Below are positions 24,592 to 50,054 of a stretch of 64,000 nucleotides of DNA, piece after piece. This DNA is from a virus. The notes under the pieces are model-generated. The model was not told where the DNA came from. It was given only the letters and a program-made list of their open reading frames with translations, and searched no databases. Position 1 is the first letter of the stretch; every line of letters starts with the position of its first letter. The translations under genes and the position numbers were made by a program. The DNA lies in the IMG/VR virus record IMGVR_UViG_3300046007_012472, positions 12,437 to 76,436 of that record. The stretch is one strand, 5' to 3'.

Positions 24592-24781
24592 AGTATAAAA
24601 ATTTCACATTATCTGTTTCTGCAAAAGACTTTGCATAGTCAATTGCAAGTTTCCATAATTGAGGATCTCGTTCTTTCACATAACTCGAAAACAATGACAT
24701 AAAATCAAGAAGAGCATTTGCTAATTCATCACTTACTTCGTCATCTAATGGTTCTTCGTCTGGTCTTTCGTCTTTTTCCAT
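24551..24781 (-). CDS. small acidic hypothetical protein
   Basis: 76-aa ORF filling the gap between primase and thyX. Confidence 0.6.
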   Translation of the reverse strand: MEKDERPDEEPLDDEVSDELANALLDFMSLFSSYVKERDPQLWKLAIDYAKSFAETDNVKFLYYDDESNENEDTGT

Positions 24782-25776: not shown

Positions 25777-26659
25777 TAATGTAATCTCTCATCGAAATAG
25801 AATGATTCCAATTTAGTTTTGATTTAATTTTAATTGTGTTTGCGTTCGTTATTTTTGCTTCGCCTTTTCTTGGTGGAATATAAATTTTATTCCCCCCGAT
25901 CATATCTGCTATTTCATTTATTGAATATGAATTTCCAGTGCCTAAATTATAAACTTCCCCATTTTGTCTTTCATGTATCATCATTCCGCGAATTAGAGCA
26001 GAACATATATCATCTACATGAATAAAATCTCTTTTTTGTGTTCCATCTCCAACTATAGTTAAATCTTGTTTATTTTTTTTCTGTCTAAGGAATATTCCCA
26101 TGATTGGAGCATACTGTCCTTTTGTTGGCTGTCGAGGACCATAAATATTAAAACCTCTAAAACAAACGGTATCTAATCCATACAATGAAGAATATAATTT
26201 ACACAGTTGTTCCCCGAATAATTTAGAATATGAATAAGCATTTAAACAATCTGGAACATCTGTTTCTGTTTGGATTTCTTTGGATTGCAATCCATAAATT
26301 GCGGAAGTGCTCATAAAAACCATTCTGTTAATTTTATTTTTACTCGATAGTTCCAAAATATTTTGAGTTCCCATGACATTTGTTTTTATGCACAATGAAG
26401 GATCTTCGATACAATTTTGAATACGAGCTTCTGCCGCTAAATGAAAAACACCATCTAAATAATCGGTTTCAAATATAGTTGAACAAATAATATCATTTAT
26501 ATCACAATGATAATATTTTGCTTTGATGTTAAAGTAAAAATTTTCATGAGCATCTGAACTTAAATTGTCTATAACAATCACTTCATGATTGTGTGATATT
26601 AATTTGTCAACTAAATTAGATCCAATAAATCCGCATCCACCTGTTACTAGAAATTTCAT
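25763..26659 (-). CDS. NAD-dependent nucleotide-sugar epimerase/dehydratase
   Basis: VTGGCGFIGS, FHLAA, YSYSK, FNIYGPRQ, GDGTQKRDFIHVDD. Confidence 0.93.
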   Translation of the reverse strand: MKFLVTGGCGFIGSNLVDKLISHNHEVIVIDNLSSDAHENFYFNIKAKYYHCDINDIICSTIFETDYLDGVFHLAAEARIQNCIEDPSLCIKTNVMGTQNILELSSKNKINRMVFMSTSAIYGLQSKEIQTETDVPDCLNAYSYSKLFGEQLCKLYSSLYGLDTVCFRGFNIYGPRQPTKGQYAPIMGIFLRQKKNKQDLTIVGDGTQKRDFIHVDDICSALIRGMMIHERQNGEVYNLGTGNSYSINEIADMIGGNKIYIPPRKGEAKITNANTIKIKSKLNWNHSISMRDYINDMD

Positions 26660-26663
26660 AATA

Positions 26664-28064
26664 CTAAATTTTCCAATCATTTACATTATTTTTTTGATAT
26701 TTTGTTTCAATTTGAACATCAAATCCTTTACCTGGGATTGTTTTTTCGCTAATATTTGCATTTAATATCCCAGAATGGGCTGATTTTGGGGCATCCTTGA
26801 ACTTCATCATAGACCGATCCAACGATAGGATGAACTTGCGGTTCGACATACCGTCATTGTAGCGGTTCTTAAGTTGCTTCACAAGGATCTGCTTTACTTC
26901 TTCCAATTCTTCGGTGCTGATGAGGGCGAACATGAAATCCGCAGTCATAGGCAGACCAAAACTGTCTGAAGTCTCTGACATGTCGATGTCCTGATTCCCG
27001 AAGCCTTCTCGGTTGGTCTGTGTGGCAGTCCACAGGGGGAGACCGTATTCCACAGCCAAACCACGGAGTTCTTCCGCGATCGACTTGACATACATGTATG
27101 TGTTGACCCCACCACCCATCTTGAAACGAGAACTGGCGCAGATATTCAGGTAGTCCACGAAAAGCACATCTGGAACAAACTTCTTCTTCAGACGCAACTC
27201 CTCAAGCAGGGCACGGAAATGATTCACCGTTGCCGTGGCTGTCGGATATTCCTTGATGATGAGTTTACCCTTGACATTCTCTCGGATGGATTCCATCTTC
27301 TTGTCGTAAAGTTGCTTGGGAATCTGCTTGAGATTATCAAGAGAGATGTTCATCAAGTTAGCGTCAATGCGTTCTGCAATACGCTCCTCTGCCATCTCGC
27401 AGGTGATATAAAGGACATTCAGATTCTGGGTCAAGCAGTTTGCTGCATGGTGGCACAGGAACATCGACTTGCCCACGCCGGTAGGGGCAATCACGACATT
27501 CAGAGTCTTGGTTGGTGTCCCACCTGCGGTGATCGTATTCATCATTTCGAGATCAAAAGGAATACGCTTTTCCTTGGTATGGTAGAATTCAAATCGAGTC
27601 TCTGCATCATCGATATAATCGTGACCGATGTGGGTATCAAAGGAGACAGCAAGGGCGTTAGACAGAATCGTAGGGATAGCCCCCTTGGTCTGTGTCTTTG
27701 ACTTACCATCGATGATGTGAATAGATTCCAGTACGGCATTGTACAATGCACGATCCTTGCAGAACTTCTCTGTCTCGTCTACAAGCCATTTGTCATCCAA
27801 GCTTTCATGCGTACCAAAGACTGTTTCAGTCAAACTCAGGCAATTCTCCAAGACCCCATCATCAAGATCAGTCTTGTCACCAAGAATGATTTGGACTGCT
27901 GCCTTGGTGGGAAGAGAATTATACTTGTTGGTGTAATCTGAAAAGATAGAGAACAGAATCTTGTTCTCCTTGTCTGTGAAATAGTCCTCCTTTAGGAAGG
28001 GGAGGACTTTTCGCACATACTTCTCATTGTGAGAGAGCTGTTGTAGGATTGTATGTTCAATCAT
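26664..28064 (-). CDS. 41: replicative helicase gp41
   Basis: Walker A APTGVGKS, EMAEERIAERIDAN, KEYPT, DYLNI, ATQTNR, KQLKNRY. Confidence 0.97.
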   Translation of the reverse strand: MIEHTILQQLSHNEKYVRKVLPFLKEDYFTDKENKILFSIFSDYTNKYNSLPTKAAVQIILGDKTDLDDGVLENCLSLTETVFGTHESLDDKWLVDETEKFCKDRALYNAVLESIHIIDGKSKTQTKGAIPTILSNALAVSFDTHIGHDYIDDAETRFEFYHTKEKRIPFDLEMMNTITAGGTPTKTLNVVIAPTGVGKSMFLCHHAANCLTQNLNVLYITCEMAEERIAERIDANLMNISLDNLKQIPKQLYDKKMESIRENVKGKLIIKEYPTATATVNHFRALLEELRLKKKFVPDVLFVDYLNICASSRFKMGGGVNTYMYVKSIAEELRGLAVEYGLPLWTATQTNREGFGNQDIDMSETSDSFGLPMTADFMFALISTEELEEVKQILVKQLKNRYNDGMSNRKFILSLDRSMMKFKDAPKSAHSGILNANISEKTIPGKGFDVQIETKYQKNNVNDWKI

Positions 28065-28109: not shown

Positions 28110-29069
28110 TTAGTTTTTTAGGTACACTTCTTTGAATTTTTCCATCACTTTACTTGGCTCGTAGTCTCTGTATGCATTCCAATCTTTTCCATTTATGTCG
28201 GCGTGAGATATATTGGAAAGTATATTTGAAATATCTTCTTTGGTATTGTAATAAATGCCTTTTTCTTGGAGTATGTCGATATGGCTTCTTTCTCTGGAAC
28301 CGAACCAAGTTATAACTGGTTTATTTCTTATTGAAAACTCACCACAAGCCATCCCAAAAGATTCTCCTACAGTCCTTGCGTGCAGCATTGCATCGCATGT
28401 GTTTATGAACTTTACCTTGTAATTGGCATCTGTGGAGCCGGGAAGGAATATCACTCTATCATGATCTATGAATCTTTCTGTGTATTGAAACACAAACCAA
28501 ATGTCCGATCTTTTGTCTATGATTTCCTTGATCGCTTCTTTTACGAAAGGAATATCGAATGTCTCAAAACCCCCATTCCTACCGAACACAAAAGCATCAA
28601 CAGGTATATTCAATTCTTTTCTTAGATTTTCTTCCCCTGCTGGAAGGTGAACTATGTAAGGAACATAAGGTATTTTGTGATCAACCAAAGAAGAGAGCCA
28701 ACGAGAACCTGTAGCAAATACATCTCCATGGACATCATTCATGGAACAGATCGCAATAGCGTTTACAAGATTTTTGCAAACCGTTGATATTACACCATCC
28801 GGTCTTCCACCCTTTTCCATGAAAAAATAATCACAAGCATTGTCTAGAAGGATATTGTCTATTTGAGAGACATGATCATAATGAAACACATTTCCATTGA
28901 AAGTGTTTTTAAACTTTTCGATCACTGTTTCATTGTTTGCACTATGTCTGGAATTGTATAATATTATTGGCTCAATTTGCAATAATTCTCTTGCCCAATA
29001 TGCCCAATTATAAATGGCTACTGTAGTACCGAATAAAGACAAAGCATTATCATGAAATGCAATTTTCAT
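28110..29069 (-). CDS. GT-B (GT4-like) glycosyltransferase
   Basis: CDAMLHAR..GESFGMACGE, KPVIT. Confidence 0.75.
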   Translation of the reverse strand: MKIAFHDNALSLFGTTVAIYNWAYWARELLQIEPIILYNSRHSANNETVIEKFKNTFNGNVFHYDHVSQIDNILLDNACDYFFMEKGGRPDGVISTVCKNLVNAIAICSMNDVHGDVFATGSRWLSSLVDHKIPYVPYIVHLPAGEENLRKELNIPVDAFVFGRNGGFETFDIPFVKEAIKEIIDKRSDIWFVFQYTERFIDHDRVIFLPGSTDANYKVKFINTCDAMLHARTVGESFGMACGEFSIRNKPVITWFGSRERSHIDILQEKGIYYNTKEDISNILSNISHADINGKDWNAYRDYEPSKVMEKFKEVYLKN

Positions 29070-29706
29070 TATATTTTTCCAATTTTATGAACAATAAATC
29101 TTGCTGAATTAGTGTATTATTGGGAGTGATTTGATTTTCTATTACGCAATCTACAACAAATCCATTTTTGTCCATAAATTCGACTACATCTCTTTGTGAA
29201 GGACATCCTTCATTGTAATTTGAAATATCTGTTTCTGCCAACACTAGTTTTGCATTAGATAAGGTTTTTGGACAACTTTTTAAAATGTCCAATTCACTTC
29301 CTTGTGTGTCTAATTTTATAAAATCAAACAAAAAATTTGCAAAAGAAGATTTTTCTAAAATAGAATCTAGTGTATCGGTTTGTATTTCTTGAACAAGCAA
29401 ATTATCTCCCTCATAGCAGTGTGTATTTTCTTTATATAAAGAATGTCCTGTGCCCGTAGAGTCATTCTTCATTCTATAAAATTTTTTAATACTTTTGGAA
29501 TCTGATGGACAAGAAATAATATAATTTAATCCGAGCTGTCTTAAATATGGTTCACAATCGGTGTTTGGTTCAATGCAAAGGACAAACATTTCAGGAAAAA
29601 TAGACTTTATTTCTGTTGAAAATTGTCCAATATTTGCACCAATATCTAAGACTGTTTTTACATTGTGTTTTGCTATTTGTTGATATAGTTTTATTGTATT
29701 TTTCAT
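29050..29706 (-). CDS. FkbM-family methyltransferase
   Basis: LDIGANIGQF, IEPN, TLD, IKLDTQGSELDIL. Confidence 0.9.
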   Translation of the reverse strand: MKNTIKLYQQIAKHNVKTVLDIGANIGQFSTEIKSIFPEMFVLCIEPNTDCEPYLRQLGLNYIISCPSDSKSIKKFYRMKNDSTGTGHSLYKENTHCYEGDNLLVQEIQTDTLDSILEKSSFANFLFDFIKLDTQGSELDILKSCPKTLSNAKLVLAETDISNYNEGCPSQRDVVEFMDKNGFVVDCVIENQITPNNTLIQQDLLFIKLEKYNENCIS

Positions 29707-29717
29707 TTTTCTCCCTA

Positions 29718-30518
29718 TTATATGGCAAATCCAAGCCAGTTTGTGTTGTTTTTTGTAAAACCAAGACCAGTTCTTATAATTCCAAAATGATAATTAAATC
29801 TTTCTATGTTAAGTTTATAATCATCTGCAAATTTTTTGTGATTTGTTTCTATGTGCCAATGTCCTATTCTCATGTAGTTTTCTTTTAACCATTCATAATA
29901 TTGGCAGCATATATCTTTAATAGAATTCTTGTTACCGATTAAAATTTGATCTGTGAGACCCCCATGGTCACAATTTTCAAACCAAGGAATCATCACTTTC
30001 TCATCAGATTCTTTTACCTTGGATTTGAGATATTCTATGGGAAGAGGATCTGGAGTTTCGTGGTCTTGATACCAATTCCCGTAAGGATTTTCTGGAAATT
30101 TTCCCAAAAAAGTATCTACTCTAGTTTTAATCACTATATCATAATTTATTTCGGTTTTGTCTGCGTATTCTCTAAAAAGTTCATACACTCTTTTTGTTCC
30201 ATGAGCTATGGAAAAATTTGCTCCGATATAATTATTTTGCTTTGTTATTTCTCCAACTGGACTAGAATCATAATCCTGAACATCATAAGAAACCACATTC
30301 ATGTTTTCAATTAATTTTTCTATTTTATAAACATCAGATGTGAGTATTTTAACTTTATTTATATTTTCCCACGCTGTTTTATTTTCTCCATTCCATGTAT
30401 GACAAAACACATCAGTAATATTTGAATCGTAAAATTCTGGATGTTTTCGTTTCCAGTCTTTTATTGCCATATCCAAAGAACGCAGATGTCCAGAAAATAA
30501 AAGTGCTATTTTTCCCAT
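29718..30518 (-). CDS. hypothetical, possible glycosyltransferase (SGHLR...TRVD)
   Basis: KIALLFSGHLRS, DVFCHTW, YDIVIKTRVD; similar to next gene. Confidence 0.55.
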   Translation of the reverse strand: MGKIALLFSGHLRSLDMAIKDWKRKHPEFYDSNITDVFCHTWNGENKTAWENINKVKILTSDVYKIEKLIENMNVVSYDVQDYDSSPVGEITKQNNYIGANFSIAHGTKRVYELFREYADKTEINYDIVIKTRVDTFLGKFPENPYGNWYQDHETPDPLPIEYLKSKVKESDEKVMIPWFENCDHGGLTDQILIGNKNSIKDICCQYYEWLKENYMRIGHWHIETNHKKFADDYKLNIERFNYHFGIIRTGLGFTKNNTNWLGFAI

Positions 30519-31273
30519 TATAAATTCCTAAAAATTTCTATATCATTTCTTACAAATGAATGGTGCGATGCTCCATATTTATCTGGAGCAAACGGATGAT
30601 TCATGTCAAAATACATCATATGATCAATTAAGTCTAAATTTTTTATATTTGCTCCAAAAACAGAATGTCCATCTATATTACCACAAATATTGATTAGTTT
30701 ACTTATGTTCAAAATAATAGAAGAATGTTTTTCGATATTAGACCCTGAGCCTATAGTAAAAACAGGATTTTGAACTCTGAATCCATTTGACATGTATGTG
30801 CTTTTATTAAAATCTGATTGATATATTTTTGTATTATCCAATACAGAAAAATCTATTTTGACATTAAGTGCCACATCAAATCGTGTAGATATAACCCAAT
30901 CATATTCTATTTTATTTTCGAATTCATATTCTTTTCTTTTTAAATCCGAAAAATATAAACTATGATAATGAGAATAATTTGAATAAACATATTGATCTGG
31001 AGTTGATCCATCTTTGAACTTTTCCACTAAATTTTTATTTAAAGTTTCTTCAAAACTAAATGCTTTTGGGTGATATAAATCAATAATTTTTTGTTTGAAG
31101 TCACTCAGAGAGGAAGAATAATCCCATGTATGAAAAAACACATCAACATCGATGTCATTTCTATGAATAAGATTTTTATTTTGATATTCTATTGATAAAG
31201 GAGAGTATTCTGAAAAAAGACAAAGACCTCTAGCTTGGCCATGTAAACATAATGCAATTCTTTTTTTACTCAA
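30518..31273 (-). CDS. hypothetical, possible glycosyltransferase (HGQAR...TRFD)
   Basis: RIALCLHGQARG, DVFFHTW, YDWVISTRFD. Confidence 0.55.
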   Translation of the reverse strand: MSKKRIALCLHGQARGLCLFSEYSPLSIEYQNKNLIHRNDIDVDVFFHTWDYSSSLSDFKQKIIDLYHPKAFSFEETLNKNLVEKFKDGSTPDQYVYSNYSHYHSLYFSDLKRKEYEFENKIEYDWVISTRFDVALNVKIDFSVLDNTKIYQSDFNKSTYMSNGFRVQNPVFTIGSGSNIEKHSSIILNISKLINICGNIDGHSVFGANIKNLDLIDHMMYFDMNHPFAPDKYGASHHSFVRNDIEIFRNL

Positions 31274-32391
31274 ATTATACTCACATTTTCATTATGAATT
31301 TTTATTGATTCTATAATTTCATCTTTATATTGGGCAGTTCTTACTATAACAATAGGAGCTTTTTCTTGTTTTATACAAGATGGATTATATATCATCAAAT
31401 TACTCCCATAAAGAAATTTTCCTATTTTATTTTTATCGTTATCTAATACTCCTAATAAATTTTCTACATTTAATCCATATGCAATCAGCATTTGAGTAAA
31501 TATATGACCACCGAAGCAATAGACTTTTTTTCCCTTTATCTGAGAATTTATGTTAATTACATCTTCCACTAAATTTTTTACGAATGTTTCGTATACATTT
31601 TTAGCTATTAATTTATCATAAACTAATTCTTTGGGTTCATTTATTTTTTTAAGTTTGTAAAAACAATTGTGCCGAGAAAACTCATGGATATCTACAATTT
31701 CCAGTCCGGCTATTTTTGACATAAGGTTCATGTAAGCGTGACTGATATAATATGTGTGCTCAAAATTTAATGCATTTAAAAAACCATCCTTTAATTGCTG
31801 TTCAATATTGGGTACAGAAATAATTATAGCACCGTCATCTGTTAACATGTTTTTTATTTTTAACAGTATATCAACTGGATTATAAAAATGTTCTAAAGTA
31901 TGGGAAAGTATTGCTACATCATATTTTTTGTCTGTTTTAACATTTTCAACATAATCCTTAATTATTTTTATTTTTGAATTTGTTTTACCATCATACAACC
32001 CAGCAGACAAATCACAAACAGTATATGATATAATTGAAGAATTTTCGCAAACTGCATTTGCTATCTTCATATTTGCTCCGCCAATGTCTATAGCATTTTT
32101 TGGATTATTAAAAACGATATAATTTGACAACTCTTGATTATGCAATTCCCATGTTTTTCCTATTGCTGGGTTGTGTGGTTTTTTATAAAGAACTTTTGGA
32201 TCAATAAGATTACTTAATTGAACACATCCACAATTTGAACATGAGGAAAATTCCATGTTTTCATATAATTGAATTTCATCTTTATCTCTGATTCCCATAT
32301 AGACAGGAAAATCTTTTATTATATGAAAAAATTCTAAATTTTCTTTGCATAATGCACAATTTGTCCTTCTTATCATTTTAAATTCCTTCAC
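31270..32391 (-). CDS. SAM-dependent methyltransferase, NDP-sugar C-methyltransferase-like
   Basis: CALC...CSNCGCVQL Zn site, IDIGG, SHTLEH, SVPN, FEHTYY, C-terminal DNDKNKIGK. Confidence 0.75.
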   Translation of the reverse strand: MKEFKMIRRTNCALCKENLEFFHIIKDFPVYMGIRDKDEIQLYENMEFSSCSNCGCVQLSNLIDPKVLYKKPHNPAIGKTWELHNQELSNYIVFNNPKNAIDIGGANMKIANAVCENSSIISYTVCDLSAGLYDGKTNSKIKIIKDYVENVKTDKKYDVAILSHTLEHFYNPVDILLKIKNMLTDDGAIIISVPNIEQQLKDGFLNALNFEHTYYISHAYMNLMSKIAGLEIVDIHEFSRHNCFYKLKKINEPKELVYDKLIAKNVYETFVKNLVEDVININSQIKGKKVYCFGGHIFTQMLIAYGLNVENLLGVLDNDKNKIGKFLYGSNLMIYNPSCIKQEKAPIVIVRTAQYKDEIIESIKIHNENVSII

Positions 32392-33257
32392 ATACTAGAA
32401 AAATTATCATACAATTGATTTCCTAACGAATCCATTTGAGCAAAAAATTGCTTACTGAGTGTAATATTTTTTTCTGTGGTTTCTGGACAATAGTCCTGAT
32501 TTGGGGTTTCTGTCGAAACATACAAATTATTCCAATATGTTGGGAACTCTTCCCAAAGATCACCTTGCCCAATCAAATCCCACACCCGAGTTCCAATCGT
32601 TGGAACAGTTTTGTAATAAACCGAATCCTTTAGACCCTTAATAGTTCTCATGCTGCCGGTAATTATGGCTTGATGTTTTTTGAATTTTTGGTCAGAAAGG
32701 TATTTAAGATGTGAATTTGCATCAATTCCTGCTTCTTCCATTCTACCGGGAATGATGCTTGCATAACATACATTATCATAATTTAATGCTTTTATAATTG
32801 TTCCGCTGTCTGAAATTCCAGTAACATTCAAATACAAATTCTTAAATTCTCCAAATGGACCTTTATTCCAAAAAATAGGTCTATCTGTTTCTCTTAAGAT
32901 ATAACTGAAATGCGGTATTTTCAATGCTATTTTACTTTTACCGGTATCGAATTTTGAAATAAGATTTGCCCATTTAATTATATCAGAAGGACTCATAAAA
33001 GAATTTGGAACTTGAACATAGATTAACGAATTTCCACCACAGATTTCATCCATGGTATCGCTCATGGTCTTTACCAACTTCTCAAGCTCTGCCACTGTAT
33101 GACAGTTAACTTTGGCTAGGGCGTTTGGATTTGTTGTTATGCCCAAACAAGATTTAGACGATATTTTCTTGCCTAACTTGTCCCATATGCGTCTGATTGC
33201 TTCGGTATCTGCTGTGTCAAAGAAAAAGGCTGGAAGTGTAGTTTCTGTTGTATTCAT
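32388..33257 (-). CDS. divergent transaldolase / fructose-6-phosphate aldolase family protein
   Basis: FFDTAD, GITTNP, Schiff-base Lys in ALKIP, LNVT, GR. Confidence 0.75.
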   Translation of the reverse strand: MNTTETTLPAFFFDTADTEAIRRIWDKLGKKISSKSCLGITTNPNALAKVNCHTVAELEKLVKTMSDTMDEICGGNSLIYVQVPNSFMSPSDIIKWANLISKFDTGKSKIALKIPHFSYILRETDRPIFWNKGPFGEFKNLYLNVTGISDSGTIIKALNYDNVCYASIIPGRMEEAGIDANSHLKYLSDQKFKKHQAIITGSMRTIKGLKDSVYYKTVPTIGTRVWDLIGQGDLWEEFPTYWNNLYVSTETPNQDYCPETTEKNITLSKQFFAQMDSLGNQLYDNFSSM

Positions 33258-33259
33258 GT

Positions 33260-33640
33260 TTAAGGATTCTCCGCCGTTCTGTCTCCTTTTATGAGACGGT
33301 CTTTAATTGCTTGTATTGATGTTTTCCAATCGGTATGACGATGAACTGCATCATCGATAAAAAGATCTGCGTGTGGTTTACTCCACCAAATTTCATCATA
33401 TGGAATTTGATGTTTTTCTAACCAATCAAAAAGTATTTTTCCTTGTTTAGCAAGAACTTTTCCTTGATTTCCCCCACAAGTTCTCATGTGTCTTCCTGTA
33501 TGAAGAATGATTGTGTGTCCTTCAGATTTTAACCAACGAATAGTTTCTACTGCTTCTGGAAAAGGATTGACATCGAAATATGTCATGTTTCCTAATTTTC
33601 TTTCACATACTGTATTATCAAGATCAAAGGCAAAAATCAT
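33260..33640 (-). CDS. HAD phosphatase, EcbF/BcbF capsule-biosynthesis type
   Basis: FDLDNT, LHTGRHM, WLEKHQIPYDEI, KPHADLFIDD. Confidence 0.85.
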   Translation of the reverse strand: MIFAFDLDNTVCERKLGNMTYFDVNPFPEAVETIRWLKSEGHTIILHTGRHMRTCGGNQGKVLAKQGKILFDWLEKHQIPYDEIWWSKPHADLFIDDAVHRHTDWKTSIQAIKDRLIKGDRTAENP

Positions 33641-34416
33641 TCTTTCCCTTTCATCATAAAAATATTAACATCTTCGGGGGTTCCAAGAGGAACTACAGAA
33701 TTAACCATATGAACATGCACAGGCTGACCTATTTTTGCATGATGTTTAGGTAACATACTCATGTAATATTCTTCTTTATTTTCTGGTCCTATTGGTGCTA
33801 GATTATCCATTATAAAATCTGCATAATTTTTAAATTGATCCACTCTTGAAAAATAGAATGTTCCAATGAGAGCAGGATAATTTATCCAATTATCGTCCTT
33901 TTCCCTCAATTCTATTGCTAGATTATTTTTTATTCTGGCATTACACCATTTATTTGGGAGTTTTTTGTTCTCGTCGTCAAAACAACAAATTGCCATGGTG
34001 CTCAAGTCGGATGGAAGCGAACTAAAAAAAGTATCCATTCCTGAATGATCGTATTTATTGTCAGAATCTAAAAATAAAATTGGGCTATTCGAAAACTTTA
34101 TTTTGTCACATGCTATTCTTGCAGTTTCCAAATTTCCCCTTGTCACCTGATCAAATGGTATTATTGTTATATTTTCTCCGTATATGGATTTTAAAAATTC
34201 TCCAACACCATCTTCTAGATGTTCTTTTAACACAGCAAAGCATAAATTAATGGTTTTGTCTTGCTCTTTCACATTATGTTTTATAAACGGGCATGATTCT
34301 GTTGTCCATTGCAATATTGTTTTACCGTTTACCATTACCATGGGTTTTGGTACACAATATCCCTTTTCGGTAAAACGATTTCCTTTCCCAGCCATCAATA
34401 TCATTATGTTTAGCAT
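33637..34416 (-). CDS. sugar-phosphate nucleotidyltransferase (GT-A fold)
   Basis: ILMAGKGNRF...PKPMV, TRG, LDSD, LGTPED. Confidence 0.85.
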   Translation of the reverse strand: MLNIMILMAGKGNRFTEKGYCVPKPMVMVNGKTILQWTTESCPFIKHNVKEQDKTINLCFAVLKEHLEDGVGEFLKSIYGENITIIPFDQVTRGNLETARIACDKIKFSNSPILFLDSDNKYDHSGMDTFFSSLPSDLSTMAICCFDDENKKLPNKWCNARIKNNLAIELREKDDNWINYPALIGTFYFSRVDQFKNYADFIMDNLAPIGPENKEEYYMSMLPKHHAKIGQPVHVHMVNSVVPLGTPEDVNIFMMKGKE

Positions 34417-35354
34417 AAATTTTTCATAGCCTCATTTAAATTTTTTATTCCAGTCAAATACATTATCATTTGACGCTTTTTACAATCATAATGTCTAGCA
34501 CACATTCCAACGAATATCAATCCTTCAACAAGACGAATCAAATCAATGTTTTTATCACTAAATATTTTTTTGTATGCATTAAAAGCATCTTGTTTGTTTT
34601 CATTTTCCAACAATTCAATATTATACACTCCTGTTGACTTTTTTTCAACTACAAAACTGTCATTTATGAATAATTCATATCCACCTTCAACTGAATGTAA
34701 TAATTTTGCGCAATCATACATGCTGTCACCATATATTCCTTTTGTTCCAAAGGAACCACGCATGTCTATAAATCTAGAACCTATTTTTGGATGATACAAT
34801 ATATTACTAAAACACATGTCTCCATGAATCATTGTTCTTTTATACAACAGAAGATTTTTTTCTATAAGTGCCTGTATTTTATCCCAAAGTTTTTCAAAAT
34901 TAACATATTCTTTATCATTGATTATTAATTTATCACCAGAAAATAACTCATGGTCGTAATAGGATTTTTTTAAGTTTTCGTATTCATTTTTTGTTTTAGT
35001 TATGTACATGGAAATTGCGTGGCTTTCTGCATCTTTATTTTCTTGAACATAATTGGACATCAATCCAATGGCTTCTTTAATGTTAGAAAAAACAGAAATC
35101 CAATCAAATTTTTCATCTGAAAGCATATATTCTCCGAGATTTTTATACGGATAATATTCAATTACAAGATGATATTTTTGATTTGCAACATAAGAATCTT
35201 TTTTTCTTGGAAAAAGATGTTTTACATTGGAAGGAATCGAGTCGTAATACGCGATTTCATCTAATAGCCTATCGGAAGCACTGCTTTTTTCGACTAGACC
35301 AAAAGGTAAAATTTGTATTGTGTTGTATGCTCTCGTATTAAATGTTTTTTCCAT
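34410..35354 (-). CDS. APH/choline-kinase-like sugar kinase (BcbE C-terminal type)
   Basis: TRAYN, EIAYY, IHGDMCFSNI, IDMRGSFG, GDSMYDCAKLLHS. Confidence 0.8.
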   Translation of the reverse strand: MEKTFNTRAYNTIQILPFGLVEKSSASDRLLDEIAYYDSIPSNVKHLFPRKKDSYVANQKYHLVIEYYPYKNLGEYMLSDEKFDWISVFSNIKEAIGLMSNYVQENKDAESHAISMYITKTKNEYENLKKSYYDHELFSGDKLIINDKEYVNFEKLWDKIQALIEKNLLLYKRTMIHGDMCFSNILYHPKIGSRFIDMRGSFGTKGIYGDSMYDCAKLLHSVEGGYELFINDSFVVEKKSTGVYNIELLENENKQDAFNAYKKIFSDKNIDLIRLVEGLIFVGMCARHYDCKKRQMIMYLTGIKNLNEAMKNLC

Positions 35355-35958
35355 ACTTATGCTCAATAATTTCATCGATGGAAATCATATTTAATTGAAA
35401 ACGCCTAGCCAATTCCTCTAGTTGCGGCAATCTTGCCATAGAACCGTCATCGTTCATTACTTCTATTATGATTGCTACCGGCTTGACTTGAGCCATCAAA
35501 CATAATTCAACACTAGATTCTGTATGACCCTGACGCTCCTTCAGAAGCCCTGGTCTAGCACGAAGAGGAAAAAGGTGTCCGGGCTGTGCAAAATCGCCAG
35601 GAACACTCTGTTCACTTATAAATTTTTTAATAGTCACCATTCGATCGTTCACACTTACTCCAGTGGAAATTCCTTCTGAAGCATCTATGCTATTTGCAAA
35701 TGGTGTTACAAACTTATCTAATTTGTTGCTTTGCATCATTGGAATAGATAATCGTTCCAATCTGTCAGCCATGCAAGGCAAGCACATTATTCCGCGTCCC
35801 CATTTTGCCATAAAAGCTAATGTTTCCGCAGAGGCCATTTCAGCCGCAAGCATCAAATCACCTTCGTTTTCTCTGTCATAACTATCAACTATAATTATAG
35901 GCTTGCCTGATTTTATATCACCCAAAACATTTTTAATATTGCATTCACTTGTATTCAT
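35338..35958 (-). CDS. ribB: 3,4-dihydroxy-2-butanone 4-phosphate synthase
   Basis: DRENEGD, CLP, STGVSVNDR, PGHLFPL, RQGHTES, EVMNDDGSMAR. Confidence 0.93.
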   Translation of the reverse strand: MNTSECNIKNVLGDIKSGKPIIIVDSYDRENEGDLMLAAEMASAETLAFMAKWGRGIMCLPCMADRLERLSIPMMQSNKLDKFVTPFANSIDASEGISTGVSVNDRMVTIKKFISEQSVPGDFAQPGHLFPLRARPGLLKERQGHTESSVELCLMAQVKPVAIIIEVMNDDGSMARLPQLEELARRFQLNMISIDEIIEHKYGKNI

Positions 35959-35995
35959 TTTGTTTGCTCCAATCTTATTTGTATATATTTTGCTT

Positions 35996-36709
35996 TTATT
36001 TGCAGTTTATTGTTTCTTTGTGAGATTCATGGTAATATTCAAACTGTTTCAAATTTCCAACTCTATCTTTTGCGTATATGTTCAACAAAGAGCCCAGCAC
36101 GGGAAGATCTCCCCACCTATTTTTATGTTGCAATTCACTGAAAGCTATTTGCTTCAGGATGGAACTTACAGGTGGTTCACGCCAAAATTGAACACTACTT
36201 ATGCAGACATTGGTGTATGGAAATTTGTGATCATAAAAGAGGCTTGCCGGAACATTTGTTATTGATTCTATAAACTGGGGTAGAGTGGCGTTTGTTGCCT
36301 CATGACTTTCACGGCAAGGCGCGCTAATCAAAAACACCTTGTCATCTATACAAGAAAATGGATCGATTTCAATCTTTGATATAAAGCAATCTTCATCAAC
36401 TCTTAATATAAAATCATATTCTTTCGTATAATTCCAGATGTCATACATGTTGAATTTACACATTCCTGCGTAACCACCCGTCCATATAGAGCTAACATCA
36501 ACGAATTGAATCGTCTTGTCTTGGCTATGTTCTAGTATGAAATCTTGATGCTCTTTGCTGATATTACCCTCATGAAAAATAATGGATTGGTAATGTTTAT
36601 TCATTTTTTCATTCAGATGATGATAAATCAAGTTATTCCTCTGAATAAGCATATAATAGTTATTTACATGGGAATATCCTCTTGTCAAACAAACTATGGC
36701 GTTTTTCAT
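35996..36709 (-). CDS. GT15/KRE2-like glycosyltransferase
   Basis: IIFHE, YAGMCKF, YDFILRVDEDC, YTN, RWGDLP. Confidence 0.7.
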   Translation of the reverse strand: MKNAIVCLTRGYSHVNNYYMLIQRNNLIYHHLNEKMNKHYQSIIFHEGNISKEHQDFILEHSQDKTIQFVDVSSIWTGGYAGMCKFNMYDIWNYTKEYDFILRVDEDCFISKIEIDPFSCIDDKVFLISAPCRESHEATNATLPQFIESITNVPASLFYDHKFPYTNVCISSVQFWREPPVSSILKQIAFSELQHKNRWGDLPVLGSLLNIYAKDRVGNLKQFEYYHESHKETINCK

Positions 36710-37557
36710 AATATTTTCCTCAATTGCTCTTTCAGAAGTTCAAGAGAAGGTTCTTTTCCTTCGAACAAATATTCAGATCGTATTTTCTCATAATCCTCAT
36801 CATTATTGTCCAGTTCTATTATTTTTTCAACAAAAGCATCCATGCTGGGGAAATCGTTTAAGTTTATAAACGATTTGGTGTTGAAATCGTGATTGCAGTG
36901 CTCGTCTGCCCAATATAGGGGAAGGCAACCGGCAACCTTTGCGTGAAGCAATTTTTCTGTGTAATATCCAGGATGAGTTCCATTTTCAAAACAAATGTTG
37001 AATTTATAATTTGATATGATATCATATTTTATATCTTCGCCATTTGAATGATTGCCGAAAGGTGCTCCGAAACATTCAATTGGTTTATATTTTGAAAGTT
37101 TTTGAAGTATTTCTATTCTATTTCTGATTGGATTGCTGAATACTATTGAACAAAACTTGGTTTTAGGACGAACTGAAAATCTACTATTTCTGAGTTCACC
37201 CTGTGGTATGACAAATTTTGGATTCCCGTAACCAATTTTATCGAACCAATCTATCTGAAGCATCCACAATGGAAGTCGGATGTTTCTTCCTTCATAATCG
37301 GAAAAATCAAAGGTTAGGCTATAATCACATTCTTCGTAATTTGGGCGTTTGTTTTCCCCAGTATAGAATATTTTTTTGACCTTTTTCCTGTCGGCAGCGT
37401 GGTGCTCAGACCCAAAACAAGAATAGATTAAAATGTCGGTATTGTCATTTGAGAAAGGTACAATCTCACAAGCAGGATACATGCTTTTTAATAAATCAGA
37501 AAAAAAGTTATTATAAGGGTCAACATCACCCCAAAAATCACAAAATGAAACTTTCAT
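36706..37557 (-). CDS. GT10 fucosyltransferase-like
   Basis: IFYTGEN, RLPLW, YKFNICFEN...GYYTEKL, PLYW. Confidence 0.88.
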   Translation of the reverse strand: MKVSFCDFWGDVDPYNNFFSDLLKSMYPACEIVPFSNDNTDILIYSCFGSEHHAADRKKVKKIFYTGENKRPNYEECDYSLTFDFSDYEGRNIRLPLWMLQIDWFDKIGYGNPKFVIPQGELRNSRFSVRPKTKFCSIVFSNPIRNRIEILQKLSKYKPIECFGAPFGNHSNGEDIKYDIISNYKFNICFENGTHPGYYTEKLLHAKVAGCLPLYWADEHCNHDFNTKSFINLNDFPSMDAFVEKIIELDNNDEDYEKIRSEYLFEGKEPSLELLKEQLRKIL

Positions 37558-38127
37558 TCAATTCTCCACAAATGCAACCAATACATCAGTTTTTCCACTA
37601 AAACCTTCTTCATACACTATTTTGTAGTTGGGATTAATCTCCATCAGTTTGTTTTCTATTCCTTTTACATCATAAAAATTTCTAATAGCCCAGTCAGTAC
37701 GAGCCTTAAAAATTCTAATATCATCGATCATAATCGTATTGTCATTACGGGTTGAAAAATTTTGAATAATATCAAGTTCGTGCATTAAAGGCGAATGCGT
37801 GTTGATATCGGGATGAATATGACTCAAATCCAAATGGGCATCCAACCAAAATGTTATTTTGTCGGTTATAGATGGTAGAATTTTTTGTAACACATCGGCA
37901 CTGTGTCCTAAATGTAGCTCGACATTTCCATTTTTTATTTCAGCTTCAAATCGTTCTGAACAATTTGTATAATATGGTTGCATTATTTCTATGCTTATTA
38001 CTTTTTTTGTTTTGCAATCAAGGGCCATTTGTATTCCATCGCCCATCCATGAACCTGTTTCTAAAAATAAATCGCTTTTGTATTTTTTGTACACAGATTC
38101 AAATAATGTAGTTTTTGTTTCAGACAT
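37558..38127 (-). CDS. class I SAM methyltransferase-like
   Basis: FLETGSWMGDG, SIE, FWLDAH, IMIDDIR. Confidence 0.7.
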   Translation of the reverse strand: MSETKTTLFESVYKKYKSDLFLETGSWMGDGIQMALDCKTKKVISIEIMQPYYTNCSERFEAEIKNGNVELHLGHSADVLQKILPSITDKITFWLDAHLDLSHIHPDINTHSPLMHELDIIQNFSTRNDNTIMIDDIRIFKARTDWAIRNFYDVKGIENKLMEINPNYKIVYEEGFSGKTDVLVAFVEN

Positions 38128-38144
38128 AATTTTTTTCCTTTATT

Positions 38145-38810
38145 TTAACCCATTTCCTTTGGATCCCATTTATGATTTGGGTCCTGATTTAGTGACGAAG
38201 AAAATTCCAAACTCTGGAACGCGAGAGGCGGTTGAAACCAATAATTGTTGATATCAAACTTCCTGACAATGTAGTTATAAAAGTGATCTGATGGTAAATT
38301 TACATTAGACATTTCTTTTACCGTTTTTTCAGCAAATTGTTGACTTATGCAAAATGCATGAGTACACCTAGACCCTCTATTCGTTCTATAAACATTTACC
38401 CCGGGTATTTGCGGCTCTTTTAAGTTGAAGCAGCTTCCTACCCAACCTATATCCCAATCGTTTGGAAGTTGGTTCATATATGCATCAAAATATTGTGGGA
38501 AGTTATCACATAAAACAGCATCATCTTCAAGCACAAGAGCAGAAGCATATTTTTTCTCATGCATGTCCTGAACAATCCAGGAATGTTTCAGTGCCAAAGA
38601 TTTTTCCCCTTCGGTCATTTTTGTTTCTGGATGATTTATTTTTGGGTATTTCTGATTGATTTCATTTACATCCCATGTGTCTTTGTCGAAATGTTCAACA
38701 AAAAAATAATTTGACATTTTGAATCTGTTCAATTGCTCAGATACTGCAGCTTTTCTTTCCGTCAATTTTTTATAATGACAGATGTAAATCTTATCTACAG
38801 CTATACTCAT
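38145..38810 (-). CDS. GT25-family glycosyltransferase
   Basis: SLALKH, LVLEDDA, LPNDWDI, CTHAF. Confidence 0.8.
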   Translation of the reverse strand: MSIAVDKIYICHYKKLTERKAAVSEQLNRFKMSNYFFVEHFDKDTWDVNEINQKYPKINHPETKMTEGEKSLALKHSWIVQDMHEKKYASALVLEDDAVLCDNFPQYFDAYMNQLPNDWDIGWVGSCFNLKEPQIPGVNVYRTNRGSRCTHAFCISQQFAEKTVKEMSNVNLPSDHFYNYIVRKFDINNYWFQPPLAFQSLEFSSSLNQDPNHKWDPKEMG

Positions 38811-39496
38811 ATTCTATCTCCAAATTGTTTATTTTCTTCTACTGTCCAATGGGGTTTATCCATATACAATTCATTTTTATTTGGATGTTGAAACTGCGCG
38901 TAACCTTGATAATCATATCCATGACATCTGACTTTTGTCTGTTCTTTTATGGAATTTATCTTTTGGTCTGTCGCATAATAAATATCGGTTCCAAAAAACG
39001 CATTTATTGCTCTTGTATAAACAACGGGTCCGGTCAATTCTAGAATTGATTTTATTTTATCTTGTTTGATATTTTCAACACAATAATCCAAGCAAATTTT
39101 CAATATCGGATGCTTGGGGGTAAACATCAAGCACCATTGAACAAATTTTCCTTGATTTTTTTCTCTGCTTATTATAGAGCAACCGTCATTCAATATTAAA
39201 CTATCTAGATTTGCAAATATTAGAGAATCCACATCGATGTAGATTCCGCCTCGCTCATAAAGAATCGAATATCTCCACAAATCAGCTTTGGCTGCTCCTA
39301 TGGTGAGTTTGTTGAAACAATCAAACACATCTGTTTCACAATTCTCTTCCATGTATTTCAACATGTCTTTATCATCAAATAATTGATATTCATAATTTTT
39401 GTTGATTTTCAACATATCATCAATCGTGCTCTTTATGGAGACCGGAAGATGTTTAGTCATCCAAGTTTGATATATTGTTTTGGGTAATTGAATCAT
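38807..39496 (-). CDS. GT32 (OCH1-like) glycosyltransferase
   Basis: LPKTIYQTW, KADLWRYSILYERGGIYIDVD, TGP. Confidence 0.88.
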   Translation of the reverse strand: MIQLPKTIYQTWMTKHLPVSIKSTIDDMLKINKNYEYQLFDDKDMLKYMEENCETDVFDCFNKLTIGAAKADLWRYSILYERGGIYIDVDSLIFANLDSLILNDGCSIISREKNQGKFVQWCLMFTPKHPILKICLDYCVENIKQDKIKSILELTGPVVYTRAINAFFGTDIYYATDQKINSIKEQTKVRCHGYDYQGYAQFQHPNKNELYMDKPHWTVEENKQFGDRI

Positions 39497-40329
39497 TTTA
39501 ATCTTTCAACTATTCTATCATAAAACCCATTCATTGTAAAATACTTTTTGTAAATTTGTTGAATTTTGTCTTTGATTATTGGCATTTCCGATTCTCGCTC
39601 TTTCAATATTGAAACGATATTTTTAATATCATTTTCCGAAATCAGGACGGAAAAGTCAGACCAATTCAGTTCGTCGGACCATGGCAAATATAAATCATCT
39701 GTGATGATCACGGGAATAGCCCCAAGTTGCATGCTTTCATACAATCTAAAACTGTTTAGACCATATCCTCTGGGACAAAGACAGAATTTGCTATGGGTGG
39801 TGACATCAAAGAAAAAAGAAAATTCATCATCATCCACTTTGGGTGTCCAGCCCTTTATTCGCATCAGGATGCCCTCCTCGTTCCTGCATGCCTCGAACAT
39901 CTTGGCACGAATCGGATGCGTCATTGAGCCTACAAACGAAGCCAGAATGGGTCTTTCTTCTTCCTGATATTCCCTTTCGATCGGTGAGCATACAAGAGGA
40001 ATTGGGATGATATTGTTTCCTTTTACATTTCCCCCAGCAGAAAAGCATATGGTATCTGGTGGCAATCTCTCGTAAGGTGCATCGTCGTGCTGGGATACGG
40101 TAAAATATTTTTTGTCTCTGGGAAGATCATCCAGAAATTTTTGGATTCTTGACCTATCGTTGTGGCAATATAGGGTTGTCCAACTTATAGCAATATACTC
40201 TCTTGAAACTGCGGGGGTCTCTTTCGCAAACTTATTATAGAAATAATCTTCTAGATAATCCCCCTTGTGGTAGGGGGGATAAACCGGATACATTGGATTG
40301 GGTCTAAGATCATCTCTTGTGTGAATCAT
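39493..40329 (-). CDS. exostosin-like (GT47) glycosyltransferase
   Basis: SFVGS, SKFCLCPRGYGLNSFRLYESMQLGAIPVII, LPW. Confidence 0.85.
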   Translation of the reverse strand: MIHTRDDLRPNPMYPVYPPYHKGDYLEDYFYNKFAKETPAVSREYIAISWTTLYCHNDRSRIQKFLDDLPRDKKYFTVSQHDDAPYERLPPDTICFSAGGNVKGNNIIPIPLVCSPIEREYQEEERPILASFVGSMTHPIRAKMFEACRNEEGILMRIKGWTPKVDDDEFSFFFDVTTHSKFCLCPRGYGLNSFRLYESMQLGAIPVIITDDLYLPWSDELNWSDFSVLISENDIKNIVSILKERESEMPIIKDKIQQIYKKYFTMNGFYDRIVERLK

Positions 40330-40988
40330 ACAAACCAGAGCCCTTCTTGCTTAAACCTGTTTGTCTTCTCTTCGATTCCCACCATGTGATTGTTGTGGAC
40401 AATCACTGCTTTATCTTTGTATCCCGCCTTGTAGTAAACATGTCCATTTGGAAAACGCACCTGATTCAACAAGGAAATATTTTCTCTGTATTTTGCAGAA
40501 AGATTGTTTATCAATATCTGGTCATCTTCTTCCACATTTTGTGAACATTCATTTATCAATTCTTTGCATTTTTCATGAGAATTGAACACCATGAATCCCG
40601 AGCAAATCATAGATCCAGGAAGGTCACATTGGAACAATATCCAATGATCATCGATGATGTACGGCATCGGATTTTCTTTAAATACTATATCCGTATCCAC
40701 CCAGCAGAGCGACTTGTGTTGTGAATAGATTTCAGATATCAATTTCCATTTATTTTTGACAATTTTTCTGAAATTGCTTTGAGCATCAAAAGTCCAATTT
40801 TGATACTCTGTCAATTCCATGTCATCATGCAAAAATGCTCCTTTATATGATTTCATGTTCTCATACGCATTTTTGTCCAGACATGCAATGATAAAATCGT
40901 CCAAATTTAGTCCGACTTTTTCTGCCGACTTGAGCATGTTCTTGCATATGTCTATGCAACCACTATTTAATTGAGTCAGAAATTTCAT
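40326..40988 (-). CDS. GT77-like nucleotide-diphospho-sugar transferase
   Basis: ACLD, WVDTDIVFKENP, CSGF, DDQ, FPNG, VHNN, K. Confidence 0.78.
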   Translation of the reverse strand: MKFLTQLNSGCIDICKNMLKSAEKVGLNLDDFIIACLDKNAYENMKSYKGAFLHDDMELTEYQNWTFDAQSNFRKIVKNKWKLISEIYSQHKSLCWVDTDIVFKENPMPYIIDDHWILFQCDLPGSMICSGFMVFNSHEKCKELINECSQNVEEDDQILINNLSAKYRENISLLNQVRFPNGHVYYKAGYKDKAVIVHNNHMVGIEEKTNRFKQEGLWFV

Positions 40989-41833
40989 TTGATGTACTCG
41001 TAAATCATTTCATCTGCCATTTTCAAGTTCATGGCAATTTCAAAGTTTTTCTTGATTGCATCCGTTCTATCCATATAATCCTTTTCTTCAAGATCAAGTA
41101 TCCAATCAATTTTGGTGGGATCATTTATTGTTATTATCCCATTAGGATCAAATATTTTTGATATATTCGGATCTCCCCAATATAAGGGAATTGTTCCTGT
41201 AACAAAACAATCTGTTATTTTTTCCGTGTAATATCCTGGATGATTATCGTTTTCTATTGTAATAGAAAACCTGTATTCTTGTAAAGCTTCTAATTTTGGT
41301 CTATGATGAGTTCCCCTGTCAACTCCTATCACTTTACTATTTGCCACGCCTCCATATAAATCAATTTTATCTTTTAAATTTGAAGCAATGCCCCATCTTA
41401 TTCTGTGGCCTTTTGTAAAATTTTTAGAAGACGATAACATCGATACATTTTTTGATTTCTTATAAATTTGGCATTCATCTCTATCACCCCAAGGCAAATT
41501 GCTTCCTGGAGCTATTTTAATGAATCTAGAATCTTCTTGAGTCAATTCGTCACTACAGGTAAAAATTCCTTTTATTTTTTCAAATAATTTTTCCTTGTTA
41601 TTTTTTATAAACAGTATAACATCAGGCACAACTTGAAATGATTCTACGATCCAACCATACAAAATTTTGTCTTCTACAGAAGAATGCAAAGACATAGGAA
41701 TTGCCCTGTCTGCCAAAATATAAATTGGAGAATCTGGATTTCCTGACCATCTAAAATTTTTAGGTTTTCTCGTTGAACAAGAAGAGCCATGATTTAACGA
41801 AAAAGGAGCACCTATTATTGTTAATTCATCCAT
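40985..41833 (-). CDS. GT10-like glycosyltransferase
   Basis: YRFSITIEN...YYTEKITDCFVTGTIPLYWG. Confidence 0.8.
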   Translation of the reverse strand: MDELTIIGAPFSLNHGSSCSTRKPKNFRWSGNPDSPIYILADRAIPMSLHSSVEDKILYGWIVESFQVVPDVILFIKNNKEKLFEKIKGIFTCSDELTQEDSRFIKIAPGSNLPWGDRDECQIYKKSKNVSMLSSSKNFTKGHRIRWGIASNLKDKIDLYGGVANSKVIGVDRGTHHRPKLEALQEYRFSITIENDNHPGYYTEKITDCFVTGTIPLYWGDPNISKIFDPNGIITINDPTKIDWILDLEEKDYMDRTDAIKKNFEIAMNLKMADEMIYEYIK

Positions 41834-43470: not shown

Positions 43471-43480
43471 GATGACTCCA

Positions 43481-48147: not shown

Positions 48148-50054
<1,907 letters not shown>

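Follow-up and report, generated by a model that had tools for sequence, protein, structure and literature searches.

A cluster of five genes in a stretch of viral DNA probably converts the product of RibB, L-3,4-dihydroxy-2-butanone 4-phosphate (DHBP), into a nucleoside diphosphate (NDP)-sugar. The stretch, referred to below as the window, comprises 64,000 nucleotides (positions 12,437 to 76,436) of the IMG/VR virus record IMGVR_UViG_3300046007_012472, and the cluster, referred to as the cassette, encodes RibB, a sugar kinase, a nucleotidyltransferase, a small phosphatase and a divergent aldolase. To our knowledge DHBP is known solely as the four-carbon precursor of riboflavin. We propose that the five genes together constitute a viral pathway to a nucleotide sugar with ribulose 5-phosphate as its starting point, a scheme of six steps that, taken as a whole, stands slightly better than an even chance of being correct. 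The assignment of a specific C-methyl furanose as its product is tentative. The same reserve applies to the proposal in its fullest form, in which marine phages and at least one planctomycete would make a previously undescribed C-methyl-branched furanose nucleotide sugar from ribulose 5-phosphate and use it to decorate a virus-encoded glycan.

Conservation of the cassette

An initial annotation of the window had described the five genes as overlapping or abutting, and all five open reading frames were recovered on the minus strand at the coordinates it had given, as part of a long minus-strand gene array (Table 2). Reading from RibB, successive genes overlap by 38 nt (RibB/kinase), 7 nt and 4 nt, and a gap of 2 nt precedes the aldolase; with the kinase start placed at Met8, as in the public gene call, the first overlap falls to 17 nt.

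A profile of the aldolase identified 39 viral loci in IMG/VR and a single locus, in a metagenome-assembled genome (MAG) of the Planctomycetota, among 185,579 prokaryote species represented by one genome each. Searches of IMG/VR with the kinase and with RibB returned four and two loci respectively, the latter both on contigs that were also found with the kinase. The gene order RibB, kinase, (nucleotidyltransferase), phosphatase, aldolase is constant in the 39 IMG/VR loci, in Synechococcus phage S-SKS1 and in the Planctomycetota MAG, at identities that fall as low as 36% for the aldolase and 44% for RibB. This arrangement is far beyond chance. The DNA of the cassette has no match at the nucleotide level among 50,697 phage records, and our literature searches found no description of the cassette.

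RibB is present in 39 of the 41 cassette loci, where it usually adjoins the kinase, and both exceptions sit at edges: L040 is cut off, and in L025 RibB lies approximately 5 kb upstream at the edge of the locus. The linkage is thus nearly universal and not sporadic, as it would have been had the initial annotation been wrong by its own criterion. In S-SKS1 and at least 15 uncultured viral loci the nucleotidyltransferase and RibB are fused into a single protein of approximately 475 amino acids (aa), the nucleotidyltransferase on the N-terminal side, while the MAG locus encodes a triple fusion of RibB, a MobA-like nucleotidyltransferase and the kinase, in that order (817 aa; L049 4239-6692). That RibB has been fused independently to two different enzymes of the pathway strongly supports a role for it there, and the aldolase family for its part is found only together with RibB.

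Two variants of the cassette were observed. In L025 (1-7813) a second APH-family kinase of 269 aa, an SDR protein and two unknown proteins precede the kinase, phosphatase and aldolase genes. In L031 (2498-3691) and L042 (2515-3711) a RuBisCO-like protein of 397 aa (RuBisCO_large, 6e-36) is encoded two genes upstream of RibB.

The sole cellular copy comes from a groundwater MAG (L059, G004 contig 186). Its neighbors on the contig include a tRNA synthetase and CotH, a split transketolase, an APH kinase and a methyltransferase, together with a B12/radical SAM enzyme, a Zn-dehydrogenase, an RmlD-like reductase and two glycosyltransferases of about 740 aa, and judged by these gene assignments the planctomycete copy lies in a glycan locus. 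We considered whether the contig could be a misbinned T4-like phage and rejected this on account of the tRNA synthetase, CotH, transketolase and large glycosyltransferases that it carries; the MAG also gave no match to the T4-type baseplate wedge protein of the window.

RibB and the fate of DHBP

The RibB of the cassette is canonical in sequence. It scores 202.2 bits against TIGR00506, above the equivalog cut-off of 177.45, and 232.9 bits against PF00926, and it matches RibB structures in the Protein Data Bank (PDB) at 2e-48, with gapless alignments to 1IEZ (E. coli) and 3H07 (Yersinia). Judged by eye, it is approximately 40-45% identical to the RibB proteins of E. coli (1G57/1IEZ), Yersinia (3H07) and V. 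cholerae (4P8E). The motifs that the initial annotation had called intact are so: RENEGD, Cys59, TGVS, Asp105/Arg106, His128, Arg142, His145-Thr-Glu147 and Glu166 all align, and the equivalents of the catalytic and Mg-binding E. coli residues Glu38, Glu40, Cys67, Thr107, Asp113, His136, Arg150, His153 and Glu174 are all kept. When 31 unique viral RibB proteins (44-89% identical) were compared at 17 positions, 15 of these were invariant and no clade-specific change of the active site was seen; the listed catalytic residues are invariant with the exception of Ser102, which is kept in 30 of the 31.

What distinguishes this RibB from that of the riboflavin pathway is its company, as it occurs in a setting of glycan synthesis, is fused in some loci to sugar-activating enzymes and has no partner riboflavin enzymes. 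To examine the latter we searched five cassette-bearing phage records: that of the window itself (G000, 76 kb), G001 (217 kb, terminal repeats, 100% complete), G002 (90% complete), G003 and S-SKS1. Lumazine synthase (PF00885) and GTP cyclohydrolase II (PF00925) are absent from all five, two of which are at least 90% complete; host enzymes may still exist. None of ribA, ribD, ribE and ribH was seen among the genes of the surrounding island that were scanned, ribD and ribE not having been searched for as families. The initial annotation had noted the lack of other rib genes in the window, and their presence elsewhere in the genome would have spoken against its proposal; with neither PF00885 nor PF00925 in the five records there is no viral riboflavin sink for DHBP. 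The linkage, the fusions and the missing riboflavin partners together support its suggestion that DHBP is diverted into an activated ketose or branched sugar, although the chemistry past DHBP is something that we infer.

A divergent aldolase of the transaldolase fold

The aldolase has no Pfam match at E <= 0.01. A phmmer search of the PDB gave noise alone, a profile of five family sequences reached the transaldolases at E ~0.3, and the fold was settled by fold search and larger alignments. An AlphaFold2 (AF2) model (mean predicted local distance difference test score, pLDDT, 82.6) was matched by Foldseek to transaldolase/FSA structures in all of its top positions (TalB, FSA and TalC; E ~1e-10, probability 1.0), and the cassette aldolases of S-SKS1, G001 and G002 score 46.7, 46.3 and 37.3 bits respectively against TAL_FSA (PF00923), for which the gathering cut-off is 27. 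Because S-SKS1 holds a canonical talC (171 bits) in addition, its cassette aldolase is not the auxiliary gene usually seen for the pentose-phosphate pathway.

To map the active site, 35 unique family members were aligned by E-INS-i with TalB and FSA of E. coli and TalC of S-SKS1 (Table 1). The map agrees with where the AF2 model places the strands and with an hhalign alignment to E. coli FSA, which pairs Asp14, Asn43, Gln82 and Lys113. It replaced a first MAFFT alignment with FSA and TalB, in which strand 5 was misplaced and Thr153 was picked instead of Thr146, and a spurious hhalign alignment to TalB. All of the mapped residues are invariant in the family, and 17 invariant residues were counted among the 35 members.

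Table 1. Active-site residues of the cassette aldolase and their equivalents in E. coli TalB and FSA
Cassette aldolase	TalB	FSA	Position or role
Asp14	Asp17	Asp6	Strand 1 Asp
Asn43	Asn35	Asn28	Conserved Asn
Gln82	Glu96	Gln59	General acid/base position of transaldolases
Lys113	Lys132	Lys85	Schiff base
Asn144-x-Thr146	Asn154-x-Thr156	Leu107-x-Thr109	Donor C1 pocket
Ser167	Ser176	Ala129	Donor C1 pocket
Ile169	Phe178	Tyr131	Acid/base position of FSA, packs on acceptor
Arg172	Arg181	Arg134	Phosphate binding
Ser202/Arg204	Ser226/Arg228	Ser166/Lys168	Phosphate binding

With TalB, TalC and FSA the cassette aldolase has in common the TIM-barrel and the Asp, Asn, Thr and Schiff-base Lys, the last of these on strand 4, and with the transaldolases it also shares a donor pocket formed by Asn and Ser and the Arg residues that bind phosphate. 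It differs from all three in an insertion (approximately residues 120-140) and some 55 additional residues at the C-terminus, and in belonging to an isolated family that always lies within a RibB cassette. The family is compact as well as isolated: 524 members were found among the 958 word-sharing candidates scored from a set of 5.8 billion proteins, and of 1.84 billion representatives 179 matched at E <= 1e-3.

The retention of Asp14, Asn43, Lys113, Thr146, Arg172 and Ser202/Arg204 argues for Schiff-base chemistry on a phosphorylated partner. The pocket for the C1 hydroxyl of the donor is polar, of the transaldolase type (Asn144, Ser167), rather than hydrophobic as in FSA, which favors dihydroxyacetone (DHA) as the donor over a 1-deoxy compound such as DHBP. 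Where TalB and FSA have an aromatic residue packed against the acceptor carbonyl, the cassette family has the smaller Ile169 without exception. Neither known general acid/base is present, since Gln82 stands where transaldolases have Glu96 and Ile169 where FSA has Tyr131; the invariant Glu174 and Glu175, just past Arg172, are candidates for the missing group.

Kinase, phosphatase and nucleotidyltransferase

The small HAD phosphatase finds its best NCBIfam match in TIGR01689 (BcbF/EcbF), at 66.4 bits and thus far below the cut-off of 162, and its PDB matches are 1xpj (6.8e-15) and 9iqw, a "capsule biosynthesis protein" (1.9e-6). The initial annotation had regarded the kinase, nucleotidyltransferase and phosphatase as BcbE/BcbF-type; of this the phosphatase stands as a distant relative of BcbF/EcbF that lacks their capsule context, while the closest characterized relatives of the cassette enzymes are AfhE and AfhF. 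For the link of BcbE/BcbF to ketofuranose branches that the initial annotation had mentioned, our literature searches gave no confirmation. A kinase, a small HAD phosphatase and a nucleotidyltransferase also act together in GDP-heptose synthesis (HddA/GmhB/HddC), where they convert a sugar omega-phosphate into an NDP-sugar, and the combination of such a phosphatase with a kinase and a nucleotidyltransferase is what the cassette has in common with both the heptose route and the BcbF/EcbF systems. The phosphatase gene of S-SKS1 (gene 40, SWZG_00040; L001 9944-10300) is labeled "phosphoheptose isomerase" in GenBank, a label that we reject as the product is a small HAD phosphatase. RB69p051 (L002 4567-4953) bears the same GenBank label and is in fact an AfhF-like small HAD phosphatase.

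The kinase gives weak APH/RIO matches in Pfam and NCBIfam, and tblastn with it finds RB69 ORF052c and its relatives in RB69-like phages. A profile of the kinase family matches RB69 ORF052, in the kinase domain of AfhE, with an E-value of 2.6e-20 (model positions 28-312), and a profile of the phosphatase family matches RB69 ORF051 (AfhF) at E 1.6e-15. By these matches the kinase and phosphatase are homologues of the C-terminal domain of AfhE and of AfhF respectively, with activities that are predicted accordingly. In the 5.8-billion-protein set 180 relatives of the kinase were found among 886 word-sharing candidates scored, and none of the 120 that were listed bears the name of a capsule or other bacterial pathway. 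The nucleotidyltransferase remains weakly assigned, with weak matches to NTP_transferase (0.007), MurU (4e-5), GlmU and RmlA over the N-terminal G-rich loop and beyond, to PDB 4evw (0.004) and, in a search of five sequences, to RB69 ORF053 (0.0015).

AfhE combines a nucleotidyltransferase with an arabinose-5-phosphate 1-kinase, AfhF is a Mg-dependent HAD phosphatase, and in E. coli phage HY126 the two convert arabinofuranose 5-phosphate via the 1,5-bisphosphate and the 1-phosphate into UDP-arabinofuranose (PMC13326640). The UDP-D-arabinofuranose pathway is described for phages HY126, RB69 and DLP3, and 1xpj is a structure match also reported for AfhF homologues (PMC13326640). The cassette shares with the Afh system a start at ribulose 5-phosphate, a kinase of the APH fold, a small HAD phosphatase and the logic of kinase, phosphatase and nucleotidyltransferase acting on a furanose phosphate, and both systems are found in T4-like phages near the DNA polymerase gene. 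The planctomycete copy likewise fuses its nucleotidyltransferase to the kinase, as in AfhE. The cassette nucleotidyltransferase, however, is only remotely similar to its Afh counterpart, and the two systems differ at the front end, where the cassette has RibB and the transaldolase-fold aldolase in place of a SIS isomerase. This front end implies that the carbon skeleton is rebuilt, not isomerized. SIS isomerases (PF01380) are absent from G000-G003 and S-SKS1, so this is not the arabinose pathway, and RibB and the aldolase replace the arabinose-5-phosphate isomerase. The two systems differ also in their surroundings: the Afh genes accompany DNA arabinosyltransferases, whereas the cassette lies in a glycan island with multiple glycosyltransferases and its phages lack the ThyA-type 5-hydroxycytosine synthase.

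Proposed pathway

In the first step of the scheme, which is strongly supported by sequence, RibB would convert ribulose 5-phosphate into DHBP and formate. A DHA unit, taken from fructose 6-phosphate, sedoheptulose 7-phosphate or free DHA, would then be bound as a Schiff base to Lys113 of the aldolase and added to the ketone carbonyl of DHBP (step 2). With DHA as donor the product would be 4-C-methyl-hex-2-ulose 6-phosphate, an analogue of fructose 6-phosphate that would close to a furanose, while a glycolaldehyde donor would give a 3-C-methyl-pentofuranose 5-phosphate. By homology to AfhE the kinase would phosphorylate the anomeric hydroxyl (step 3), giving a furanose 2,6- (or 1,5-) bisphosphate of the same topology as the Afh substrate, from which the HAD phosphatase, by homology to AfhF, would strip the terminal phosphate (step 4). 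The nucleotidyltransferase would form the NDP-sugar (step 5), and adjoining virus-specific transferases of the GT-A fold may place the sugar onto a glycan made by the other glycosyltransferases of the island (step 6), carried either by a virion protein or by an acceptor in the host envelope.

The choice of DHBP as acceptor rests on its likeness to glyceraldehyde 3-phosphate. DHBP (CH3-CO-CHOH-CH2OP) is glyceraldehyde 3-phosphate (OHC-CHOH-CH2OP) with a methyl group in place of the aldehyde hydrogen, and the distance between phosphate and carbonyl is equal in the two. A donor pocket of the DHA type, an intact site for the acceptor phosphate and the smaller Ile169 together suggest that DHBP fits as acceptor. 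The relation between the CH2OP group and the anomeric hydroxyl in the furanose product would be the same as in arabinofuranose 5-phosphate, and would thus suit a kinase of the AfhE type, a phosphatase of the AfhF type and a nucleotidyltransferase.

Several points weigh against this scheme. We infer the product sugar, the donor and acceptor of the aldolase and the nucleotide from sequence, and the residue map is drawn from alignments at 15-20% identity and a ligand-free AF2 model. As both known acid/base residues are absent, the reaction of the aldolase may be something other than a standard aldol addition. The assignment of the nucleotidyltransferase is weak (E ~0.005), and in the L031/L042 variant no nucleotidyltransferase was detected within 7 kb of the cassette. 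We know of no natural class I enzyme of the transaldolase family that uses a ketone as electrophile, nor, from any glycan, of a C-methyl ketofuranose of this kind.

Alternative explanations

The roles of the two substrates in the aldolase could be reversed, with DHBP as the donor that forms the Schiff base on Lys113 and its C3 attacking an aldehyde, so that a 1-deoxy-ketose with a 3-C-(phosphooxymethyl) branch would be made and then activated. This would keep to the usual chemistry of the transaldolase fold, which has an aldehyde as electrophile, and enzymes of the FSA type, of which Gln82 is a hallmark, naturally take 1-deoxy donors like hydroxyacetone, of which DHBP is a substituted form. 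We nevertheless consider it unlikely, because it fits both the donor pocket and the Afh topology less well than does DHBP as acceptor: the C1 pocket is polar and not lined by the Leu/Ala pair that favors methyl ketones in FSA, the phosphate would lie two carbons from the Schiff base and away from the site that Arg172 and Arg204 maintain for the phosphate of the acceptor, and in the product it would sit on a branch beside the anomeric carbon, which is unlike the Afh substrates. There is also no clear cellular source of a short free aldehyde to serve as acceptor. A conventional aldehyde acceptor could instead be provided by RibB itself, the mechanism of which runs via a 2,3-diketone and a branched aldehyde, if the viral enzymes had been neofunctionalized to release a different product, for example one of these, as the true substrate of the aldolase. 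This is improbable given a score above the equivalog cut-off, the conservation of the catalytic residues, including those for the final deformylation, and an active site that shows no change particular to the clade at the 17 positions compared. We also rejected as very unlikely the reading of RibB as an auxiliary gene for host riboflavin that merely travels with the cassette, the other enzymes activating an ordinary sugar phosphate such as fructose 6-phosphate. Single-step auxiliary genes are frequent in phages, ribB is found by itself in a few phage records that are unrelated and the cassette enzyme is, as described above, canonical; yet a passenger would not be expected to remain inside the cluster in 39 of 41 loci across 36-89% identity, to be fused in frame in independent architectures to the nucleotidyltransferase or to the nucleotidyltransferase and kinase, to lack lumazine synthase and GTP cyclohydrolase II in five phage records, or to be the constant companion of the aldolase family.

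The preferred scheme, in which DHBP is the acceptor and a glycan the destination, must also be set against the use of the NDP-sugar as a donor for DNA hypermodification, as in the arabinosyl-5-hydroxycytosine system of RB69 and HY126. The homology of the kinase and phosphatase to AfhE and AfhF is in keeping with such a role, as is the position of the RB69 Afh module, which likewise adjoins the DNA polymerase gene. We rate it as very unlikely. ThyA-family pyrimidine hydroxylases/hydroxymethylases (PF00303) are absent from G000-G003 and S-SKS1, G001 being complete, so that the acceptors used by the known DNA-sugar systems, 5-hydroxy- and hydroxymethyl-pyrimidines, are lacking. In addition, the island holds sugar methyltransferases and at least eight glycosyltransferases of families that assemble oligosaccharides (GT10, GT25, GT32, GT47), and the sole cellular copy of the cassette lies in a glycan locus. 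The many other glycosyltransferases, together with fibre genes that have a glycosyltransferase nearby, make a glycan of the virion or envelope a more likely target than DNA.

Were the scheme to hold, it would provide the first fate of DHBP outside riboflavin synthesis and the first natural enzyme of the transaldolase family with a ketone as aldol acceptor, in a new catalytic arrangement. The feeding of DHBP into sugar activation would represent a new branch point in central metabolism and probably a new monosaccharide, and an aldolase with neither of the known catalytic solutions is a candidate for new C-C bond-forming chemistry that could be of use in biocatalysis (tertiary carbinols, branched sugars). 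The case for large marine phages assembling complex glycans of their own would also be strengthened, with virion decoration, receptor masking and superinfection exclusion as possible roles for these. New in this work are the map of the aldolase at residue level, from which we argue that its acceptor may be a ketone, the explicit searches for rib, SIS and ThyA genes with their negative outcomes, the placing of the flanking transferase family in the GT-A fold and the planctomycete locus with its triple fusion.

Genomic setting and neighboring genes

The cassette lies in a glycan island of approximately 14 kb between uvsX and gp41 (Table 2). Pfam scans of the island identified GT25-like, Nucleotid_trans, GT47, GT32 and GT25 genes and two of GT10, and it also holds three methyltransferases, the cassette and a GT-B-like protein of 319 aa. 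For the latter there is a weak GT1 lead, atlas look-ups having otherwise given virus-specific unnamed clusters alone. Elsewhere the window encodes a T4-type baseplate wedge protein, ribonucleotide reductase and three collagen-like tail fibres. The polymerase is approximately 50% identical to those of Synechococcus myoviruses, and the helicase 54-57% identical to the helicases of Methylophilales phage Melnitz and Pelagibacter phage HTVC008M. The source record has an estimated completeness of 35%. With replication and tail genes around the island, the cassette is carried by a marine T4-like myovirus, and the setting in a bacterial capsule locus that the initial annotation had drawn on was dropped for this reason.

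Table 2. Features of the window, with functions as predicted (all positions are those of the window)
Feature	Position	Strand	Remarks
Five-gene cassette	32388-35958	minus	Open reading frames confirmed
RibB, 3,4-dihydroxy-2-butanone 4-phosphate synthase, 206 aa	35338-35958	minus	First gene of the cassette
APH-fold sugar kinase, 321 aa (314 aa from Met8)	34410-35375	minus	Homologue of the AfhE C-terminal kinase domain
Sugar-phosphate nucleotidyltransferase, 259 aa	33637-34416	minus	Weak family matches
Small HAD-type phosphatase, 126 aa	33260-33640	minus	AfhF/BcbF-like
Divergent transaldolase/FSA-fold class I aldolase, 289 aa	32388-33257	minus	Fold search and alignments
NDP-sugar C-methyltransferase-type enzyme, 373 aa	31270-32391	minus	Methyltransf_23, _14 and _13 matches
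GT-A fold glycosyltransferase, 251 aa	30518-31273	minus	AF2 pLDDT 83; virus-specific family
GT-A fold transferase paralogue, 266 aa	29718-30518	minus	21% identical to the 251-aa protein; profile cross-matches
Glycan island	28110-42467	minus	Between uvsX and gp41; Pfam scans
UvsX/RecA	42451-43500		Flank of the island
gp41-type helicase	26664-28064		Flank of the island
Family B DNA polymerase gp43	43481-45997		Flank of the cassette region
Primase	24745-25776		Flank of the cassette region
ThyX	23839-24591		Flank of the cassette region
Collagen-like tail fibre gene	48147-50054	minus	
Collagen-like tail fibre gene	50445-53126	minus	
Collagen-like tail fibre gene	59961-62534	minus	
RCC1-repeat-like protein	53238-55001		Adjoins the fibre genes
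Glycosyltransferase, phrog_13126 ("beta-1,4-glycosyltransferase")	55667-56884		Adjoins the fibre genes

The GT-A fold paralogues of 251 and 266 aa flank the cassette in nearly all loci and, from this position and the modeled fold, are the best candidates for the cognate transferases of the cassette sugar. A Foldseek search with the model of the 251-aa protein placed enzymes of the GT6 family closest (4ayj, E 3e-7, TM-score ~0.5), and the residues invariant in the family are Gly12, Asp44, Tyr124, Arg131 and Asp133. Between these genes and the cassette lies the gene of the C-methyltransferase-type enzyme, which overlaps the stop of the aldolase gene by 4 nt. It adjoins the cassette in many loci; its membership of the pathway is uncertain, as several cassette loci are without it, and a second methyl-branched sugar or a further methylation by this enzyme is possible. 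The collagen-like fibres, whose genes adjoin those of a glycosyltransferase and an RCC1-repeat-like protein, could by speculation be the acceptor of the phage glycan.

Outside the main island, a gene for a nucleotide-sugar epimerase/dehydratase (25763-26680) lies between those of the gp41 helicase and the primase and overlaps both. Upstream of the baseplate wedge gene is a gene for a very large tail protein of 1744 aa (9820-15054), of which the last ~90 residues alone match a known phage tail family.

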